A DNA stretch of 64,000 nucleotides, taken from a virus (Duplodnaviria > Caudoviricetes). The notes under the pieces are model-generated. The model did not search any database, was not told the origin of the DNA, and worked only from the letters and a program-made list of their open reading frames with translations. Position numbers and translations under genes: made by a program. The DNA is taken from positions 1 to 64,000 of the IMG/VR virus record IMGVR_UViG_3300017691_000006. One strand, 5' to 3'. Shown in pieces: positions 12,829 to 50,256 of this stretch (its first letter is position 1; each line of letters starts with the position of its first letter).

Positions 12829-12902
12829 TGGCGAGTCGGCCAGGTGTCGAACCTGGGTCGTCGGTTTTGGAGACCGATGCTCTACCGTTGAGCTACCTAC
12901 CC
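12829..12902 (-). tRNA. tRNA-Trp (CCA) with encoded 3' CCA
   Basis: GGGTAGG-TAGCTCAACGGTAGAGC-A-TCGGT-CTCCAAA-ACCGA-CGAC-CCAGG-TTCGACA-CCTGG-CCGACTC-G-CCA folds as a cloverleaf; one A.G mismatch in the acceptor stem. Confidence 0.92.
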
Positions 12903-16801: not shown

Positions 16802-16821
16802 GGGTTAATTCAACGGGTTGG
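16802..16821 (-). promoter_or_regulatory. Conserved motif, degenerate copy (candidate phage RNAP promoter for scaffold/capsid)
   Basis: Plus strand GGGTTAATTCAACGGGTTGG, 19/20 identical to the three perfect copies; lies just after the RNAP stop codon. Confidence 0.7.
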
Positions 16822-29446: not shown

Positions 29447-29469
29447 CAGGGTTAATTTAACGGGTTGGG
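29447..29469 (-). promoter_or_regulatory. 23-bp conserved motif, perfect copy (candidate phage RNAP promoter)
   Basis: Plus strand CAGGGTTAATTTAACGGGTTGGG, identical at 50187 and 50234. Confidence 0.75.
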
Positions 29470-42673: not shown

Positions 42674-42973
42674 TCAGAACTTTTCCTCTACGTAGTCCGC
42701 GATCTGGGCGAACGTGAGCTCGTCCCGATCGTTCAGGTGTATGATAGTCATGCATTGTTCGAGGGTAAGGGATGTTTTCCGCAGCACGTCAGTCCAGTGA
42801 ACCGGCATCATGCTGGCGCCCACCTGTACGAGAGGTTCGTTCAGGGTTAGCAGCAGTACGCCCAGCGCGCAGGCGCAGCTGCGGTTCTCGGGGTCGACGT
42901 AGATGCGTCGTATCTGCTTGTAGCGCCCCGAGCGAAGGTTGGTGAGGAATGCGGCCTTCACGTGCGGTGGCAT
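42674..42973 (-). CDS. Paralog family B protein
   Basis: NLRSGRYKQ...CALGVLL...LNDRDELTFAQIADYV. Confidence 0.65.
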   Translation of the reverse strand: MPPHVKAAFLTNLRSGRYKQIRRIYVDPENRSCACALGVLLLTLNEPLVQVGASMMPVHWTDVLRKTSLTLEQCMTIIHLNDRDELTFAQIADYVEEKF

Positions 42974-43010
42974 GGTTTCTCCTCTCGGCCGTAAAAAGTT
43001 TAGGTGGGAG

Positions 43011-43037
43011 GGTCAGTTTAGCGTCGTGACCAGGACG
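43011..43037 (-). ncRNA. H-type pseudoknot motif, copy 1
   Basis: CGTC-CT-GGTCA-C-GACG-CTAAAC-TGACC; P1 CGTC/GACG, P2 GGTCA/TGACC. Confidence 0.6.
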
Positions 43038-43043
43038 TGTTCG

Positions 43044-43637
43044 TTACGCGGTGTGGTGCCGCTTGCTCGCGGCCTTCCTCGCGGCCTTGGCCTTGCGGCG
43101 GCGGTCCCGGCGGTTGCCGGTGAAGACCTGCTCCGGCTCCTCGCCGAAGGCGGCGGTGGTCGGCTCGTCCATGTCGGCGAACTCGACCTCGCGGTCGTCC
43201 TCGTCGGGCTCCAGCGAGACCATCTGGAGACGGAGCTCCTCCACCAGCTCGGGGCTGATGTTCATGCCGATCTGCTTGAGCTTGGTGTCGATGATCGCTC
43301 GCGCAACCTCGTGGCTGAGCGTCGGGTCCTTGAGCTGGTCAGCAGCGGACGCGATGTGGAGGTCTGCGGGGACGAGACCAGCGGCCTCCATCTGCGCGCT
43401 GAACGGCTCCAGCTCACCCCTGTCGACCAGGAAGAGCTCAGCGCCCTCCGGCAGTGCGAGCGCCTCCTCGGAGGTCTCCACCTCGACCAGGCCGTCCTCG
43501 TTGTGCGTGCAGAGAGCGTACCACTTGTTCGAGAGACCCTCCTCGACCAGCTCCACGGTCGCTGCGGGCTTGCCCTTGGCGATCAGGAACAGGTTGGCGA
43601 CGAGCGCGCTGTCGTAGTTCTTCATGTGCATTCTCAC
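43044..43637 (-). CDS. Hypothetical acidic protein with basic C-terminus
   Basis: 197 aa; ends NRRDRRRKAKAARKAASKRHHTA. Confidence 0.6.
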   Translation of the reverse strand: MRMHMKNYDSALVANLFLIAKGKPAATVELVEEGLSNKWYALCTHNEDGLVEVETSEEALALPEGAELFLVDRGELEPFSAQMEAAGLVPADLHIASAADQLKDPTLSHEVARAIIDTKLKQIGMNISPELVEELRLQMVSLEPDEDDREVEFADMDEPTTAAFGEEPEQVFTGNRRDRRRKAKAARKAASKRHHTA

Positions 43638-43659
43638 TTGAGGTTGTTAGTGGTGGGTC

Positions 43660-43688
43660 AAGCCAGTTTAGCGTCGTGGCTCAGGACG
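43660..43688 (-). ncRNA. H-type pseudoknot motif, copy 2
   Basis: CGTC-CT-GAGCCA-C-GACG-CTAAAC-TGGCTT. Confidence 0.6.
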
Positions 43689-43782
43689 TCACAGCCGTTT
43701 GCGTGCGGCATTTTACTCTGGTATCGTTTGGGGTTGTTGAACTTACTTCATGATAACCTCCTAGGTGTTTCATATAAGATGC

Positions 43783-44076
43783 TCAGTTCTGCGCGAGCCA
43801 CTCCTCGACGTGCTGGACCGACACGAGGCCGATCTTGCTGCCCATCAGCACCCCGTTCTTGAACAGGTACAGGGTGGGCACGGCCCGGAGCTCCAGCTCC
43901 TTGGCCACCAGCGCGTTCTCGGTGACGTCGCAGACGAGCACGTCCTCGCGGTCGGACAGGCGTTCACCCATCTCGACCGCCAGGTTGGACCAGTCGGTGC
44001 GGCAAAGCAGCATCACCCTCCCCGCGCGCTGCTTCACCTTCGCCTCGAAGTTGGCGTCCGTTACGGCCTCAGGCAC
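43783..44076 (-). CDS. Thioredoxin-fold protein lacking CxxC
   Basis: Aligns by eye with E. coli TrxA (VTDANF..., RAVPTLYLFKNG...KIG), but WCGPC is replaced by WSNLA. Confidence 0.8.
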   Translation of the reverse strand: MPEAVTDANFEAKVKQRAGRVMLLCRTDWSNLAVEMGERLSDREDVLVCDVTENALVAKELELRAVPTLYLFKNGVLMGSKIGLVSVQHVEEWLAQN

Positions 44077-45046
44077 TCAGCCGCACCTGCACGGGAGCGG
44101 ACATCTCGCGGATGTCCAGCTCCGCCTCGATGGCGTGCTTGAAGTGTACGCCGTGCACCGTGATGCGGTAGACCTCGGGACCGACCTCCTTGATGAGGCC
44201 GTACTTCAGCAGCTCCTGGATGGAGCGCGCCGACGGGGTGTTAGCCATGACGAGCTTCTTCTCGCCGGTCGCCAGCACGTCCTTCTGGAGGTCAGTCACC
44301 GTGAAGGGCTTGTTGATGGGAGCCCTGCTCAAGCACAACATCGTGCCTAAGCTAACCTTGTTGATCAATGCGTGGAAACCGGTAAGCATATTCATATCTC
44401 CTCTTGGATCAATCGACCTCAATGATGAGGTTCTCGTGGCCATGTTTGTGGAGGTAGGCCACCCTGTCCTCGTAGCTCATGTTGTCGAGCTCGGCCTGGT
44501 TGGACCGTCGAACGAAGGCGTTGACTTGTTTCTCTGCGAAGGCGTTCACCATCCGCTGCAGGTCCTGGGGCATGCCGCCCCGGATGATCTGCTCCATCAC
44601 GTCCTGGCTGATGTCGTCCCGCGCGTGAAGGCTCACGTTCGGTGCGATCATGCCGCGGACTCTCTCCTCTACCTCAACTGCCTGTCTGTTCAACATACCA
44701 CCCCACTCCACTCAGTTTGTTGTTGCTGCGGTTGTACTTGCACTATCCCACTTGGGCTTTGTCCTTTCATATGGTGTTACTGCAGCATATGCAGCTGCGA
44801 CTCGGCCCGCATGCGCAGGTCGAGAACGGACTCCACCTCCGACGCCTCGCGGCTCGGGGTCGAGATGTTGAGCACGGGAGGGCCTGCGGGCTTGTGGTCG
44901 ACCTGCTGGTCGCCCTCGCTCGCCGTGCGTGTCTTGGTGAACTGGTCGAGCTGCAGCTCAGCTACAACTCCGTTGATGGCGACGACCGCGCCGGGATCGA
45001 ATTGTTCGAGAAGGTGAATCAGCTGGTGGTTGCGCATGTTGCCTGC

Positions 45047-45082
45047 ATTTAAAAGGGAGTGACACCCGAAGGCATCACTCCC
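45047..45082 (-). terminator. Intrinsic terminator
   Basis: GGGAGTGATGCC-TTCG-GGTGTCACTCCC-TTTTAAAT. Confidence 0.8.
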
Positions 45083-45369
45083 GTAGTTGTCGTCAGAGCG
45101 TCTCGAACACCGCCTCGAGCTCGTCCTTGAGCGGGTGGTCCGCTGCGACGGCTGCGCGCTGGAACACGTCGCGTCGCTCCTCGGAGCCCTCGACCCAGGG
45201 CACCAGCACGGACATGATCGAGGCGACGTCGCTCGCCCTATTCTCCGGGTGGTCCCGGAAGTGACGCGTCATCACGGTCACGGCGTTCTCGCCGGCGTCG
45301 GAGACCACGGCCTCGTCCACCTTCGGCGACACCGCCGCGTCGTCGATCACGATGTCGTTCGCGTCGTTT

Positions 45370-45621
45370 TCATCGGCCATTCTTCTTGTCTTCCTCTTCG
45401 AGTAGCTTCCTGAGGTCCTCGTAGCCGCCGACGTGGCGACCTCCCATGAAGACCTGTGGTACGGTGGTGAAGCCGGCGCCTACCAGGAACTCCTTGAACT
45501 TGGAGTCCTGGCTGTAGTTGAACAAGCCGACACCCACACCGCGGCTAAGCAGAAGGTCCTTAGCCCTGTCACACCACTCACAGTTGTCGCGGGTGACAAT
45601 CACGGCACAGTTGTTATTCAT
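45370..45621 (-). CDS. Glutaredoxin
   Basis: TRDNCEWCDRAK, TVPQVF, VGGYEDL. Confidence 0.9.
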   Translation of the reverse strand: MNNNCAVIVTRDNCEWCDRAKDLLLSRGVGVGLFNYSQDSKFKEFLVGAGFTTVPQVFMGGRHVGGYEDLRKLLEEEDKKNGR

Positions 45622-45825
45622 TTTCGAGCAGTTCCTGCAGTGTTCGTCGAGGCCGTACTCGCGGAGTCCGCATGGTCCACAGGCCATACTTGTTTGCCCT
45701 CCTTGATGTCGAAGATGGTCGCGCCCTCCCTCAGCGCCTTGGCGTACGAGAGGGCGGCGCAGTACAGTTTGAATGCCGTTTGGCCGTAGGTCCAGTCGTC
45801 GTCGTGTCCGGAGACGCGGTAACGG

Positions 45826-46332
45826 TTAACCTTGAACAAGCGGCCTCTCCCTGAACTTCTCCCACAGGGGCCACAGGTCGACGACCTGGACACCCTGCTC
45901 GCGAGCGTAGCGTACGGTGTACTCGGAGCCGCCGGTGCCGCTCGATAGCGACAGCAGCTTCTGGCTCTCGTCGACCATCTGCCGGTTGCGCTTGAGGTAC
46001 GCGTCGTCGGTGAAGGTGGGCGACGTCACCGTCACCGTCTCGCACCTAGCCAGCAGCCGCCTGTAGCGCGTCTGCGCGTCGGCTGGCCAGTGGCGCTCCT
46101 GCCCCTCGAACGGCACCCTGGCGTGCACGGGGATACCCAGGACGACGCAAGCGTCGCACACCGCCTGGTCCCAGCCCTGCGCCATGCCTTGCACGACGTG
46201 GAACGCCGTGTCCTGCTCGGCGACCTCGTTGTTGAGGATCAGCCGCGCGAAGGCGTACAGCTTGTTGCGGCCCTCGATGGAGTAGCCGCCCAGCTTCTCG
46301 GGCCTGTGACCCGTCACGGAGAGGCGCATCAT
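45826..46332 (-). CDS. YspA/DUF1273 SLOG-family protein
   Basis: VTGHRPEKLGGY, QGMAQGWD, KRNRQMVD, GGSEYTVRYA. Confidence 0.85.
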   Translation of the reverse strand: MMRLSVTGHRPEKLGGYSIEGRNKLYAFARLILNNEVAEQDTAFHVVQGMAQGWDQAVCDACVVLGIPVHARVPFEGQERHWPADAQTRYRRLLARCETVTVTSPTFTDDAYLKRNRQMVDESQKLLSLSSGTGGSEYTVRYAREQGVQVVDLWPLWEKFRERPLVQG

Positions 46333-46712
46333 GTGCGCTTCTGCCTCACGCCGCCGGGAACGCACCGGTCGATGCGCTCCTTGAGGTCGTCGTAGGTGAT
46401 GTTCACCATCAGCGACTTGCCGGAGACCATCGTGATCTCGCAGTCGGTGGCGCCGGGATAGATGAACTCGACGTTGTCGAAGTTCACCATCGTCATCTTG
46501 CCGGTGTAGCGGAGGGGTAGCTCAATTACCATCGTAGATGCACTCCATGCTCATGAAGTGGCGGTACAGCATGATCATCTTGCCGCCGTGGAACAGACGG
46601 AGCACGCCCCTGTCGTCGCAGCCGTGGTTGTCGACAGTGTGCTCGGTGACGCGGTTCTCGTGGGTGACCTTCACCTTGTAGGGCTTGGTCTCGCGGATCA
46701 TGATATTCAAGC

Positions 46713-47420
46713 TCATAGGAAGATGTCCTTGGCACTTACCTTGGCAGACACAGGTTGCTTCTGAGCGACCGGCTCGGGCTGCCGTACCGGCTCCTTCGGG
46801 GTGAAGAAGCTCATGTCCAGGTCGCTGTAGTCGACGGTGGCCGCCACCGCCTTCTTGACCTCCTTGTACGCGATCACCCAGTCGGGCTGCGCGCGGTTGG
46901 TCCAGTTGTTGCCGTTGATCTTCTCGGCCAGGTAGTAGGCCCGGTACGCCTGCATCGTGTTCTCCCGGTCCATCGGGTCACGCTTGTAGACGTCCGGCAC
47001 GCATGCTTTCGGCGTCGTGTGGTTGAGGATGACGAACTTGCTCAACCAGTACTTCATGGCGGGCACGATCACTCGCGCTCGCTCGAACTTGTCCGGGTTG
47101 CCTGGGTAGCGATAGTCGTACTCGTTGACCATCGCTCGGAGGTGGTCCACCAGCCAGCTCACGTTCCCGAGGCCCTCGTTCAGCCAGAGGGCGGCGGGGT
47201 GGTTGGCGTGGGACAGCCCCGTCCAGGGCACGTCCGGAGCCTTGTCGGGCACCAGGTCGGTCTCCACGAACTGGTGCGTCTCGTCGTCGTGCGGGCCGGT
47301 GTATCGGCTGGCCCACACGGACAGCAGCTGGCACGATTCGGATATCATTTTGATGATATGCCGGTCATGCAGCGCGATAGCTGCTTTTGCAGGGTCTTTA
47401 TCGACGTAGAATATATTCAC
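46713..47420 (-). CDS. Pyrimidine-dimer DNA glycosylase (DenV-like)
   Basis: MNIFYVD.DP...A...D.H..KM..ES.QLLS ... HANHP..LW. Confidence 0.8.
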   Translation of the reverse strand: MNIFYVDKDPAKAAIALHDRHIIKMISESCQLLSVWASRYTGPHDDETHQFVETDLVPDKAPDVPWTGLSHANHPAALWLNEGLGNVSWLVDHLRAMVNEYDYRYPGNPDKFERARVIVPAMKYWLSKFVILNHTTPKACVPDVYKRDPMDRENTMQAYRAYYLAEKINGNNWTNRAQPDWVIAYKEVKKAVAATVDYSDLDMSFFTPKEPVRQPEPVAQKQPVSAKVSAKDIFL

Positions 47421-47923
47421 AGGCCAAGTAGCTCCATCTGGCTGGCTTTGGCTTTACTGTAAGCTGCCTCAGCCTCCTCGGGCGTGTTGAAGTGCCCGAG
47501 ATTCTTCTTTTGGAAAGTTGCGCGCCACTTGGCTGTAGAGGGTACGAAGGACACACCTAGTATTCCGGTGAGACTGTCCTTGTGAGCAACCACGTTGAGC
47601 ATGTTGCCAGCTCTCGTGACCAACCGCAGGTTCTCAATGCGGTTGTTGCTCTTGTTTTGATCTATATGATCTATGTCCATCCCTGCAGGGATAGGTCCGT
47701 TGTGCATTATCCAGACCAGCTGGTGCACTCTGAACTTCTTACCCAGCAGGGTGGTCTGTACGTAGCCTTGCCCGTCGTCGCTGCCTACCCGGCTACCAAC
47801 CTTAACACGATTACTGGTAGACACGAGCCAGAACAGCTCTCCTTCCTTGTACTCAAAGAAGTAGGCTAGGTCCTCAGGGCTGAACTGCACCCTGGGGCGG
47901 CACGTGGTTGTTGTGGTATTCAC
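47417..47923 (-). CDS. HNH homing endonuclease with AP2-like C-terminus
   Basis: HQLVWIMHNG...IDHIDQNKSNNRIENLR; GV.F......W.A...LG.F.T.EEA; visibly lower GC than flanks. Confidence 0.9.
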   Translation of the reverse strand: MNTTTTTCRPRVQFSPEDLAYFFEYKEGELFWLVSTSNRVKVGSRVGSDDGQGYVQTTLLGKKFRVHQLVWIMHNGPIPAGMDIDHIDQNKSNNRIENLRLVTRAGNMLNVVAHKDSLTGILGVSFVPSTAKWRATFQKKNLGHFNTPEEAEAAYSKAKASQMELLGL

Positions 47924-48440
47924 TGCTGTGCACCGGGCCGTCCTTCGTGTGGAAGAACCACGCCTTCTCCTTGCGGAGGGTGGCGAACAGCGAGAGGCAG
48001 TCCTTGGACGTGTACACGATCGCGTGCACGGACTCGGCGCTGCGGAGGACGACGTCGCCCGCGCTGCGCCACTCGGTCGAGATCAGCTTGTTGGTGCCGG
48101 CCTCGTACATCGCCTCGCAGTACTTGCCGCGCACCACCAGCGTGGCGTTGGACCACGGGTGGCAGTGCGGGTCGTCCGCGTCGCTTCGGGCGTACTCGTG
48201 CAGGTAGACGTTCTCCAGCTCGGAGTGCATCCACCCGGAGAAGCCCAGCTGCTTCGCGGGGTCGTCGTAGATCGGGACGACGGCCTTTCGGGCCAGCATC
48301 CAGCGGTTGATGTACGCCGAACCGTTGCGCATGATCGGCTGGTTCGGCGCGCGGTCCCGCATGACGGCCTCGCAGGCGGAGCGGATCAGTCCCGTCAGCT
48401 CGGGCGTCACCGCTTGCGGCAGGTAGCGGAAGTCATTCAT
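47874..48440 (-). CDS. Cupin-like protein
   Basis: YLHEY...DPHCHPW...VRGKYCE...VHAI. Confidence 0.65.
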   Translation of the reverse strand: MNDFRYLPQAVTPELTGLIRSACEAVMRDRAPNQPIMRNGSAYINRWMLARKAVVPIYDDPAKQLGFSGWMHSELENVYLHEYARSDADDPHCHPWSNATLVVRGKYCEAMYEAGTNKLISTEWRSAGDVVLRSAESVHAIVYTSKDCLSLFATLRKEKAWFFHTKDGPVHSSEYHNNHVPPQGAVQP

Positions 48441-49049
48441 TGTCGTTCTTCTCGCGCTTGATCTTCTTGAACTCGAGGCGACGGTCCCGGTCGTACTCCT
48501 CGTTGCTGATCAGGTTCGCGGCCATCTCCCTGACGGTCTCCGGGTCCCGCTTGAGGGCGGGAGGGAGGCTGTCCGGGTCCGGGTGCTCGATGACCTTGAG
48601 CGGGTGCTCGGCCAGGATGGCGTCGCGGGCACGGCGCTGCACCTGGTTGTCGGTGGACAGGAAGTAGTTGTCGAACTTGTCCTTGCCCGGCTTGTCGTCG
48701 TGGAGCTTGCGCGTGTTGGACACGATCTTGTCCGAGATGTCGCGCAGCTCCTGCATGTGGTCTTCCTGCATCTAGCCCTTCCTGTAGCGTTCGGACGCAC
48801 GTCCCTTGAAGGTGTTCTTGTACTCGCGCTCGAAGTCCGCAGGAGACATCTCGAAGTGCCTGAAGTACGGCCTCATCGGCGGGTGCCAGCCCTCTGCGCG
48901 GCCCTTGAGCGGGCTGACAGCTGGACCGCTGGGCTTCACCTTGGCGAGACGCTCCGCCAGCATGACGTCCTGCATGCAGTACCGCATGATGTCCTGCATG
49001 TGGGACTTACCGCCCCCGCGAGGCTGGTAGAGGATCTCCGAGCAGGGGC

Positions 49050-49346
49050 TCAGAACGTGTAGTAGCTGCCCCCGAAAGGGTCGTTCGTCCGGAGTGCCTC
49101 CTCTGCCTTGTTGAGGGCAGCGTCGACCTCTGCCTGGCTCTCCAGGCTCCTGTCGTCTCCGGCGAAGTTGTCGAGCGCCATGCGTGCCTGTACCAGCTTG
49201 GCAGCGGCCTCCTGCGCGTCGATAGCGGCCTTGTCGAGCGCCTCGATCTTCGCGATCAAGGTCTCGCGCTTGCCTGCCAGCTGCTGCGCGCGCTGCTTGA
49301 GCTTCGCAATGTTGTTCTCGTCACGGACTTCCTGGTAGATGCTCAT
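49050..49346 (-). CDS. Hypothetical coiled-coil protein
   Basis: 98 aa with RBS. Confidence 0.6.
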   Translation of the reverse strand: MSIYQEVRDENNIAKLKQRAQQLAGKRETLIAKIEALDKAAIDAQEAAAKLVQARMALDNFAGDDRSLESQAEVDAALNKAEEALRTNDPFGGSYYTF

Positions 49347-49366
49347 GGTGTAGTTCCTCTGGTTGC

Positions 49367-49407
49367 AAATTTAAAGCCCACCCCGCCGGTTAGGGCAGAG
49401 TGGGCTT
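49367..49407 (-). terminator. Intrinsic terminator-like hairpin
   Basis: AAGCCCACTCTGCC-CTAACC-GGCGGGGTGGGCTT-TAAATTT. Confidence 0.7.
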
Positions 49408-49510
49408 AGAGCGCGGTACGGGCGCACCGTGTGGTAGACGCGTAGATCAACCTTGCTGGTGTCGTTTAGTGCGCGGCCTGCTAGTGCGACGCACCCTTAC
49501 GGGGCATGGT

Positions 49511-49540
49511 GGTGCAGTTTATAGTCATGCTCCAGGACTA
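49511..49540 (-). ncRNA. H-type pseudoknot motif, copy 3
   Basis: TAGTC-CT-GGAGCA-T-GACTA-TAAAC-TGCACC. Confidence 0.6.
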
Positions 49541-50186: not shown

Positions 50187-50209
50187 CAGGGTTAATTTAA
50201 CGGGTTGGG
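50187..50209 (-). promoter_or_regulatory. 23-bp conserved motif, perfect copy
   Basis: Plus strand CAGGGTTAATTTAACGGGTTGGG. Confidence 0.75.
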
Positions 50210-50233: not shown

Positions 50234-50256
50234 CAGGGTTAATTTAACGGGTTGGG
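50234..50256 (-). promoter_or_regulatory. 23-bp conserved motif, perfect copy (47 bp from the previous one)
   Basis: Plus strand CAGGGTTAATTTAACGGGTTGGG. Confidence 0.75.

Follow-up and report, generated by a model that had tools for sequence, protein, structure and literature searches.

A phage-borne H-type RNA pseudoknot with a coremin-like core and its candidate role as a roadblock to 5'-3' RNA decay

The stretch of DNA analysed here, referred to below as the window, comprises positions 1-64000 of the 76,750-bp IMG/VR record IMGVR_UViG_3300017691_000006, a siphovirus genome with an estimated completeness of 97% and a GC content of ~63%, in which all credible genes lie on the minus strand and for which no close DNA relative was found among 50,697 deposited phage genomes. 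Our subject is a short element that recurs in the intergenic gaps of the non-structural half of this genome and follows the motif (C)GUC-CU-[P2a]-Y-GAC(G)-YUAAAC-[P2b], where P1 and P2 denote its two stems, P2a and P2b the two strands of the second one, and L1 and L3 its loops. Three copies lie in the window and five in the whole record, all of them on the coding (minus) strand and between minus-strand genes (Table 1). The positions, strand and intergenic location of the three window copies, on which the original prediction was built, were borne out by the sequence and by a pattern match. The pattern GTCCTG-N4-8-GAC-N1-3-TAAACTG is matched three times in the window against 0.00 expected from 100 shuffles, no weaker copies were found there at up to three mismatches, and a covariance model, which we built and used on phage genomes, scores the five copies at 31-46 bits.

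Table 1. Positions of the pseudoknot copies and of other features discussed in the text (window coordinates unless the record is named; P1, P2, L1 and L3 are stems and loops of the pseudoknot)
Feature	Position	Strand	Evidence	Details
Pseudoknot copy 1	43011..43037	minus	sequence and pattern match; covariance model 46.1 bits, E 1e-7	P1 CGUC 43037-43034 with GACG 43025-43022; L1 CU 43033-43032; junction C 43026; P2 GGUCA 43031-43027 with UGACC 43015-43011; L3 CUAAAC 43021-43016
Copy 1 leader, up to ATG	42974..43010	minus	flank comparison	CUCCCACCUAAACUUUUUACGGCCGAGAGGAGAAACC
Pseudoknot copy 2	43660..43688	minus	pattern match; covariance model 33.5 bits	P1 CGUC 43688-43685 with GACG 43675-43672; L1 CU; L3 CUAAAC 43671-43666; P2 GAGCCA 43682-43677 with UGGCUU 43665-43660, outermost pair a G.U wobble
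Pseudoknot copy 3, divergent	49511..49540	minus	pattern match; covariance model 31.4 bits	P1 UAGUC 49540-49536 with GACUA 49526-49522, compensatory C-G to A-U change; P2 GGAGCA 49533-49528 with UGCACC 49516-49511, one A.A mismatch
Terminator-like hairpin, strong	49371..49403	minus	fold and terminator scan	13-14 bp stem, then CUUUAAAUUU
Pseudoknot copies 4 and 5, outside window	68347-68369, 71528-71550 of record	minus		P2 GGCUA/UGGCC and GGCCA/UGGCC
MuF-RNA polymerase fusion, 1556 aa	16824-21494	minus	PF04233; PF00940, phrog_414	
Canonical T7-like polymerase, 746 aa	65029-67269 of record, just past window	minus	PF00940, 217 bits	
Class A motif, six copies	50237-50250, 50190-50203, 29450-29463, 16803-16816; 64337-64350, 74717-74730 of record	minus (coding strand only)	matches in 8/10 genomes	CCGTT(A/G)AATTAACC, also written CCAACCCGTT(A/G)AATTAACCCT
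Class C motif, four copies	43770-43781; 68888-68899, 69077-69088, 73683-73694 of record	minus (coding strand only)	core matches in 9/10 genomes	(G)GTATCTTATATGATATCCACCTAGG, core GTATCTTATATGA
Tape measure protein, 3246 aa	1817-11557	minus		
tRNA-Trp (CCA)	12829-12902	minus		

Two of the copies closely follow a stop codon, as had been noticed before: copy 1 begins 6 nt 3' of the TAA (43046-43044) of a 197-aa open reading frame (ORF), with the next ATG at 42973, and copy 3 begins 8 nt 3' of the TAA (49551-49549) of a 199-aa ORF. Copy 2 lies ~85 nt downstream of a class C motif, a sequence to which we return below, and the next gene starts at GTG 43637 or ATG 43625. In copies 1, 4 and 5 the whole leader as far as the ribosome-binding site is nearly unchanged and, since it is common to these three copies, the knot and the 5' leader were duplicated together. 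A strong terminator-like hairpin follows copy 3 at a distance of ~110 nt and precedes the next ORF (ATG 49346); apart from this hairpin the region after copy 3 does not fold significantly more stably than shuffles (z = -1.5). It could be speculated that the knot of copy 3, the spacer and the terminator together make up a ~170-nt non-coding RNA or an attenuated leader.

Some smaller features accompany these copies. An extra (C)UAAAC word stands 10-50 nt downstream of copies 1 and 3 (43005-43000 and 49467-49462, minus strand; CACCUAAACUUUUU and GCACUAAACGAC), and copies 4 and 5 have CACCUAAC in its place. Directly after the class C motif that precedes copy 2 comes a strong AGGAGG ribosome-binding site (window 43743-43763, minus strand), followed by a two-codon mini-ORF, ATG AAG TAA (43751-43743), ~55 nt upstream of the knot. 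A possible decayed sixth copy (...GUCGUAAAACUGCCC..., 16 bits, E ~0.8) was seen at ~68436-68468 of the record on the minus strand, ~96 nt upstream of copy 4.

Covariation among the five copies of this genome alone is modest, and the pairing was assessed in an alignment of 53 distinct copies from many phages, with pairs counted for the structure ..((((..[[..[[[.))))......]]]]]..... In this alignment 97.9% of cells pair, compared with 89.7% in shuffles, and 48 cells carry double-sided changes, compared with 14.7 (neither value was reached in 500 shuffles); when the 3' partner was slid by 1-3 columns, pairing dropped to only 20-51% of cells. Pairing in P2 amounts to 97%, and its two central pairs alternate between G-C, A-U, C-G and U-A, being changed on both sides in 22-23 of the 53 copies. 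The outer, fourth pair of P1 is C-G in 40 copies, U.G in eight, A-U in two and G-C in one. The sequences GUCCUG, GAC and UAAAC were fixed by the scan patterns while the covarying positions were free, so the invariance of these segments, including that of P1 GUC/GAC in 53 of 53 copies under these patterns, is partly a matter of ascertainment. Variants of the conserved parts do occur: a compensatory P1 swap, CGAC/GUCG, is found in Staphylococcus and Lactobacillus phages, mycobacteriophage Bongo has UGAAAC as its L3, and the GACU variant of copy 3 recurs independently, again with a matching A upstream, in a different viral contig (L163). In 33 cells the pair is G.U or U.G on the sense strand, which on the opposite strand would be an A.C or C.A mismatch; because the wobbles pair only on the sense strand, the fold belongs to that strand. 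Judged by this covariation the element is an H-type RNA pseudoknot of ~27-30 nt on the sense strand, with P1 (C)GUC/GAC(G), L1 CU, a 1-nt junction, a P2 of 5-6 variable base pairs and an A-rich L3, YUAAAC. The earlier proposal of such a pseudoknot, in which both stems show compensatory changes and CU and UAAAC stay fixed, thus emerges strengthened from the comparison of 53 copies.

The element is not restricted to this phage. An exact scan of IMG/VR with the pattern GTCCTG-N4-6-CGACGYTAAACTG gave 44 stretches of unrelated viral contigs with a GC content of 34-62%, which carry 1-4 copies each, on a single strand in all but one record. The same kind of exact pattern, run on prokaryotes with one genome per species, gave at least 119 bacterial and archaeal genome stretches; among the matches listed, 98 of 121 have a fully paired P2, and they span Bacillota, Actinomycetota, Cyanobacteria, Chloroflexota, Deltaproteobacteria, Saccharibacteria, Omnitrophota, Planctomycetes, a few Bacteroidetes and two archaea. 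All gamma- and betaproteobacterial matches among the titled stretches listed are without P2 pairing and for that reason look like chance hits. Cultured carriers, sought by BLAST of three variants, include Staphylococcus aureus Phietavirus phages (phiETA, 80, 55, B236 and others), phages of Lactobacillus, Bacillus, Moorella and Anoxybacillus, of Microbacterium, Arthrobacter and Cellulosimicrobium, and of Paracoccus, Synechococcus and Microcystis, as well as cluster M mycobacteriophages. The same three variants found none from enterobacteria or Pseudomonas, and one of them had no match in 5,426 Escherichia coli genomes in a search of limited sensitivity. No family of Rfam 15 matches the element at the gathering score or at E up to 10, string searches of the literature for the motif returned primers only, and no paper on nuclease-resistant RNAs in phages was found. 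The element belongs to a large RNA family which is spread over unrelated phages and is not in Rfam 15.

The placement of the copies relative to genes follows a pattern at the upstream side. We measured, for 55 copies, the distance from the stop codon of the upstream ORF (at least 50 codons) to the first base of P1: there is a sharp mode at 5 nt (9 copies), 22 of the 55 copies lie at 5-11 nt and none at 0-4 nt. In an independent set from cellular genomes the commonest distances are 5 and 7 nt, and among the matches listed 23 of 96 copies fall within 5-12 nt. The length of message between the ribosomal A site and the entrance of the mRNA channel is ~5 nt, and since the 5-nt gap fits this geometry, a terminating ribosome would abut the knot without unfolding it. 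On the downstream side many copies stand 25-28 nt before a start codon and P2b ends ~20 nt or more before start codons; the overall distance to the next start codon is broad, from 3 to nearly 300 nt in the larger, cellular-genome set. The knot of Staphylococcus phage B236 separates a head-morphogenesis gene from the genes for scaffold and capsid, the one in Lactobacillus phage phiEF-1.1 stands immediately ahead of the corresponding two genes, and in mycobacteriophage Bongo 3 nt separate the end of the knot from the tRNA-Arg that follows. In at least two contigs a near-consensus sigma-70 promoter (TTGACC-17-TATACT-6-G in L130, TTGACG-18-TATAAT-8-G in L146) would start transcription at P1.

The explanation that we put first, although we rate it a little short of an even chance, is that the element is a roadblock to 5'-3' RNA decay which protects the downstream message. 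Each copy would be transcribed within a phage message and fold into a compact H-type knot, which would act as a mechanical obstacle to enzymes moving 5' to 3', chiefly RNase J or other 5'-end-dependent decay; decay begun upstream would stop at the knot and the downstream cistron or non-coding RNA would stay as a stable species. In the case of copy 3, one may speculate that decay halted at the knot could leave the ~170-nt non-coding RNA mentioned above, as flaviviruses and benyviruses make theirs. RNase J is a bacterial 5'-3' exonuclease, and the hosts of the cultured carriers all belong to lineages known to have it. Among the matches listed, RNase J (TIGR00649) was found in 48 of the 72 genomes with a P2-consistent motif and in five of the 19 without P2 pairing (67% vs 26%; odds ratio 5.6, Fisher p = 0.003), an enrichment which is support, not proof, of a roadblock. 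Further evidence is the likeness to coremin, also called xrRNA-C, an exoribonuclease-resistant RNA (xrRNA) of beny-, cucumo- and other plant and fungal RNA viruses with the sequence GUCCGAAGACGUUAAACUAC, which stalls the 5'-3' exonuclease Xrn1 (PMC10520033): P1 and the linker of the phage element (GUC…GACGUUAAACU) are identical to those of coremin. Flaviviral xrRNAs reportedly withstand both Xrn1 and RNase J1 (PMC7603331). With the identical core and the RNase J enrichment, nuclease blocking is the one we favour among the four functions that the original prediction had offered. What the analysis shows is the structure of the element, its strand, its distribution, its placement and its independence from phage polymerases, and the roadblock and its target enzyme are inferred.

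Several points weigh against such a role. No RNase J is seen in 24 of the 72 carrier genomes among the matches listed, some of which are incomplete assemblies, and Omnitrophota, Planctomycetes and two Bacteroidetes recur among these carriers. The chance-hit controls are few (19) and not composition-matched, and the genomes, many of which are incomplete, are not phylogenetically independent. To stall Xrn1, coremin depends on a second hairpin (hp2) and on a YGAD loop, neither of which is conserved in the phage element. The likeness of topology is also not enough, since the frameshift pseudoknot of beet western yellows virus (BWYV) with an added hp2 showed no stalling of Xrn1 (PMC10321173).

The placement next to stop codons could also be attributed to an effect on translation, the knot acting on ribosomes so as to insulate cistrons, tune termination or serve as a standby site or enhancer for the next start, which we regard as unlikely, if still worth considering. 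By our own reckoning the 5-nt minimum between stop and P1 fits a message held by a terminating ribosome with the knot still folded, the copies found 25-28 nt before a start codon would suit such a role, and coremin itself stops scanning ribosomes (PMC10520033) and promotes -1 frameshifting, an effect also seen in an E. coli screen (PMC10520033, PMC10321173). The broad distances to start codons speak against it, as do the copies which precede tRNAs or non-coding stretches. A -1 frameshift or stop-readthrough signal in the narrower sense was rejected: a slippery heptamer is present in only three of 145 copies and readthrough frames are not kept, since of 22 copies preceded by an ORF stop at 3-12 nt, six have a frame that runs into the next ORF, which is about chance, and the readthrough extensions are often of 0-20 codons. 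The earlier interpretation thus holds for the structure and fails for its analogy with retroviral readthrough pseudoknots, even though a stop spacing of that type, with its mode at 5 nt, is present.

Rather improbable, in our judgement, is a mark at the 3' end of the upstream RNA, where the knot would stop 3'-5' exonucleases or indicate a site of cleavage and so stabilise the RNA before it. About 25-40% of copies hug the upstream stop even when a long spacer follows (copy 3 and contigs L129, L137, L145 and L151) and a U-run comes after several copies, in accordance with such a mark. The U-run is, however, found in a minority of copies, other copies hug a downstream start codon or predicted transcription start after a long upstream gap that lacks ORFs (L130, L146), and known knots of the xrRNA type are directional and yield from the 3' side (PMC7603331).

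We give a small chance to the element being specifically recognised by a conserved host protein or a small ligand, as would be an operator or a riboswitch-like aptamer that controls a set of phage genes. As in aptamers, P2 is the variable part and P1, L1 and L3 hardly change, and the topology equals that of pseudoknots of the preQ1-I and SAM-II type. The downstream genes are nevertheless diverse and unrelated (SSB, the major head or capsid protein, a Cas4-like nuclease and many of unknown function), the fold neither sequesters a ribosome-binding site nor contains a terminator, and none of the Rfam riboswitches matches at E up to 10; the aptamer option of the original prediction is not favoured on these grounds. 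No phage protein co-occurs with the element either: tblastn of all ORFs of this phage against 10 carrier genomes and nine relatives gave no shared protein partner.

A signal at the level of DNA, either a promoter (with TAAACT as the -10 box, or as a site for a phage polymerase) or a hairpin in single-stranded DNA, is very unlikely. TAAACT fits TAnnnT, the N4 virion polymerase uses hairpin promoters, and this phage encodes two single-subunit RNA polymerases, an arrangement like the vRNAP plus RNAPII of N4. One of them is a fusion whose N-terminus is a head-morphogenesis domain of the Mu-F/SPP1-gp7 type (PF04233, aa 145-250) and whose residues ~850-1490 form a diverged T7-like single-subunit polymerase, in which IHDAF aligns to IHDSF of T7. 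The fusion is present in more than 170 IMG/VR contigs at 55-65% identity, and the nearest named phages with it are EBPR siphovirus 1 (54%) and the roseophages DSS3_VP1 and DSS3_PM1 (31%). The obvious reading is that the fusion polymerase would travel inside the head and be injected along with the DNA, as that of N4 does, here in a siphovirus; the paper on DSS3_VP1 does not mention a polymerase (PMC8323127), and a 2017 survey gives virion polymerases in N4-like phages only (PMC5512222). The other, canonical T7-like polymerase is conserved in 9/9 relatives, the relatives being nine near-complete genomes with a GC content of 35-48%.

The distribution of these polymerases is at odds with that of the pseudoknot. 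By pattern search or covariance model the motif is absent from 9/9 relatives that have both polymerases and from EBPR siphovirus 1, and a T7-like polymerase (PF00940) is found in only one of the 32 other carriers; a promoter for the phage's own polymerases was accordingly rejected, the element being absent from the nine relatives and present in phages without such a polymerase. A de novo motif search in the intergenic regions of the nine relatives gave two other family-wide motifs that would fill promoter roles. The class A motif is almost identical in most relatives across a GC range of 35-63%, often with a small hairpin directly after it, and its sites stand ahead of the replication, packaging and capsid blocks; it is likely the promoter of one of the two phage polymerases. 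The class C motif has a near-palindromic centre and, in the early region, likely serves as promoter for the other polymerase or as a site for a regulator. As the pseudoknot is absent in the relatives, classes A and C are the natural promoter candidates and the pseudoknot is something else. The -10 promoter alternative of the original prediction also meets with the lack of a conserved -35 element, with wobble pairs that are strand-specific and with hosts of many phyla, and in at least two contigs, L130 and L146, the near-consensus sigma-70 promoter is upstream. Pairing by itself would also suit a signal in single-stranded DNA, but the way the copies are placed with respect to stop codons, start codons and tRNAs speaks for RNA. 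Sigma-54, extracytoplasmic function (ECF) and sigma-70 readings of the motif were tried and rejected, as the spacings do not fit by eye and a promoter scan finds none at the copies. A Bacteroidetes-type -7 box (TTGAT...) upstream of a group of contigs, which may be cyanophage-like, was dropped, its recurring TGA being the upstream stop codon at the fixed distance of 5 nt. Finally, a relative of the pistol ribozyme, whether self-cleaving or catalytic in some other way, is highly improbable: the element has a short P1 with a loop pseudoknot, is associated with phages and has a linker after P1 that resembles the UUAAA-type linker of pistol (env25), but the P2, P3 and GU junction of pistol are absent, P2b comes directly after UAAAC, the downstream sequence is unconserved and the Rfam Pistol model does not match.

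The 3246-aa ORF was considered as an N4-like giant virion polymerase and rejected, as it is the tape measure protein; its length predicts an exceptionally long tail, and its C-terminal part matches phrog_28504 and phrog_1044, families of the lytic tail-fibre or endolysin type. A single tRNA-Trp (CCA) gene lies amid the structural genes and adjoins a terminator-like hairpin.

Should the knot stall RNase J or other 5'-end-dependent decay, no earlier class of nuclease-resistant RNA would be known from bacteria and their viruses. The wider claim, that a true exoribonuclease-resistant RNA is carried by phages, and through them by prophages in Firmicutes, Actinomycetota, Cyanobacteria, candidate phyla and even haloarchaea, and that this RNA shares the coremin core base for base, halts RNase J and represents the first known prokaryotic xrRNA class, arisen through deep sharing or convergence, is one that we advance as a possibility held with more doubt than confidence. 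Were it true, stable sub-operon messages, tRNA precursors and non-coding RNAs like the subgenomic flaviviral RNAs (sfRNAs) would be carved from long phage transcripts, and this would explain unequal amounts of neighbouring proteins made from one transcript, for example little head-morphogenesis protein and much scaffold and capsid protein. DNA phages and eukaryotic RNA viruses would then have in common, by very deep sharing or by a striking convergence, a 20-nt RNA machine, and a portable RNA-stabilising tag of ~30 nt would be at hand for Gram-positives, actinobacteria and cyanobacteria. The coremin-identical core offers hundreds of natural variants for learning how a small fold stops a processive enzyme, and the motif, missing as it is from Rfam, is a cheap marker of cistron boundaries for the annotation of phages.

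Among known RNAs of similar build, the pistol ribozyme (RF02679) resembles the element in a short P1 whose loop makes a pseudoknot and in being frequent in phages (PMC4604425), and differs in the P2, P3 and GU cleavage junction which the element does not have. An assignment to preQ1-I (RF00522) finds no Rfam match, and the downstream genes are unrelated to queuosine. The frameshift pseudoknots of luteoviruses (BWYV type) resemble it in dimensions, with ~28 nt, a first stem (S1) of 4-5 bp, a 2-nt L1 that starts with C, a single junction base and an A-rich L3 in the minor groove of S1; the sequences are unrelated apart from the A-rich loop, and the slippery site that belongs to these frameshift signals is rare upstream of the phage copies. 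Alike in layout is the Watson-Crick coremin variant, xrRNA-WCC, in which loop nucleotides 6-8 pair with nucleotides 18-20 after UUAAA and which stalls Xrn1 when hp2 is present and stimulates -1 frameshifting without it (PMC10321173). This variant, represented by selected hits and Sanxia picorna-like virus 5, shares with the phage element a canonical antiparallel pseudoknot with the loop of the first hairpin (hp1), the order S1-L1-S2-L2 and an L1 base that is not substitutable. In the phage element, too, the hp1 loop forms an antiparallel S2 with bases that follow UUAAA, in a shifted register: it has 5-6 bp and starts one base further 3', after UUAAAC, with L1 CU, as opposed to an S2 of 3 bp and a single G as L1.

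Coremin itself consists of hp1, C1G2U3C4-CGAA-G9A10C11G12 with the stem CGUC/GACG, and of the spacer UUAAACUAC (U13U14A15A16A17C18U19A20C21), in which AAA, CU and AC are each essential, followed by the required hp2 (PMC6546385). The papers on coremin leave its structure unresolved and do not mention phages or bacteria (PMC6546385, PMC10520033, PMC10321173). According to its consensus, coremin has a loop of 4 nt (YGAD) or 6 nt (YGNNAD), with a non-canonical contact between loop and spacer only (PMC10520033), while the phage element has a loop of 9-10 nt (CU + 5-6 nt + Y), a Watson-Crick P2 of 5-6 bp and a one-base junction; its loop reads C-U-G-N3-4-A-Y, so that the second base is U and not the G of the YGAD/YGNNAD rule. 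Of the spacer, YUAAACU is kept (7 nt); where coremin ends in AC the phage element has G-N, two bases that take part in P2, so that UAC follows UUAAAC in coremin and UG in the phage element. As to hp2, the 24 nt after P2b of 145 copies fold like shuffles (mean -1.6 vs -1.3 kcal/mol), with -4 kcal/mol or lower reached by 17% of copies and 11% of shuffles, and P2 may take over the role of hp2. Coremin is, moreover, found in eukaryotic RNA viruses and acts on Xrn1, and the phage element is found in DNA phages and presumably meets RNase J. Since the loop, P2, junction and hp2 differ, we place the phage element beside coremin and outside xrRNA-C proper. The two have the following in common: the phage consensus, CGUCCUG-NNNYA-CGACGUUAAACUG, is identical to coremin at 15 of its 20 positions, which have the same structural roles; the CGUC/GACG stem has the same sequence and the same C-G pair closing the loop; the linker UUAAACU is identical over 7 nt, including the AAA that is essential in coremin; the first base of the loop is a pyrimidine (C); the structure of the lower stem matters more than its sequence, stems of 3-5 bp being tolerated; and both elements occur in tandem and between genes.

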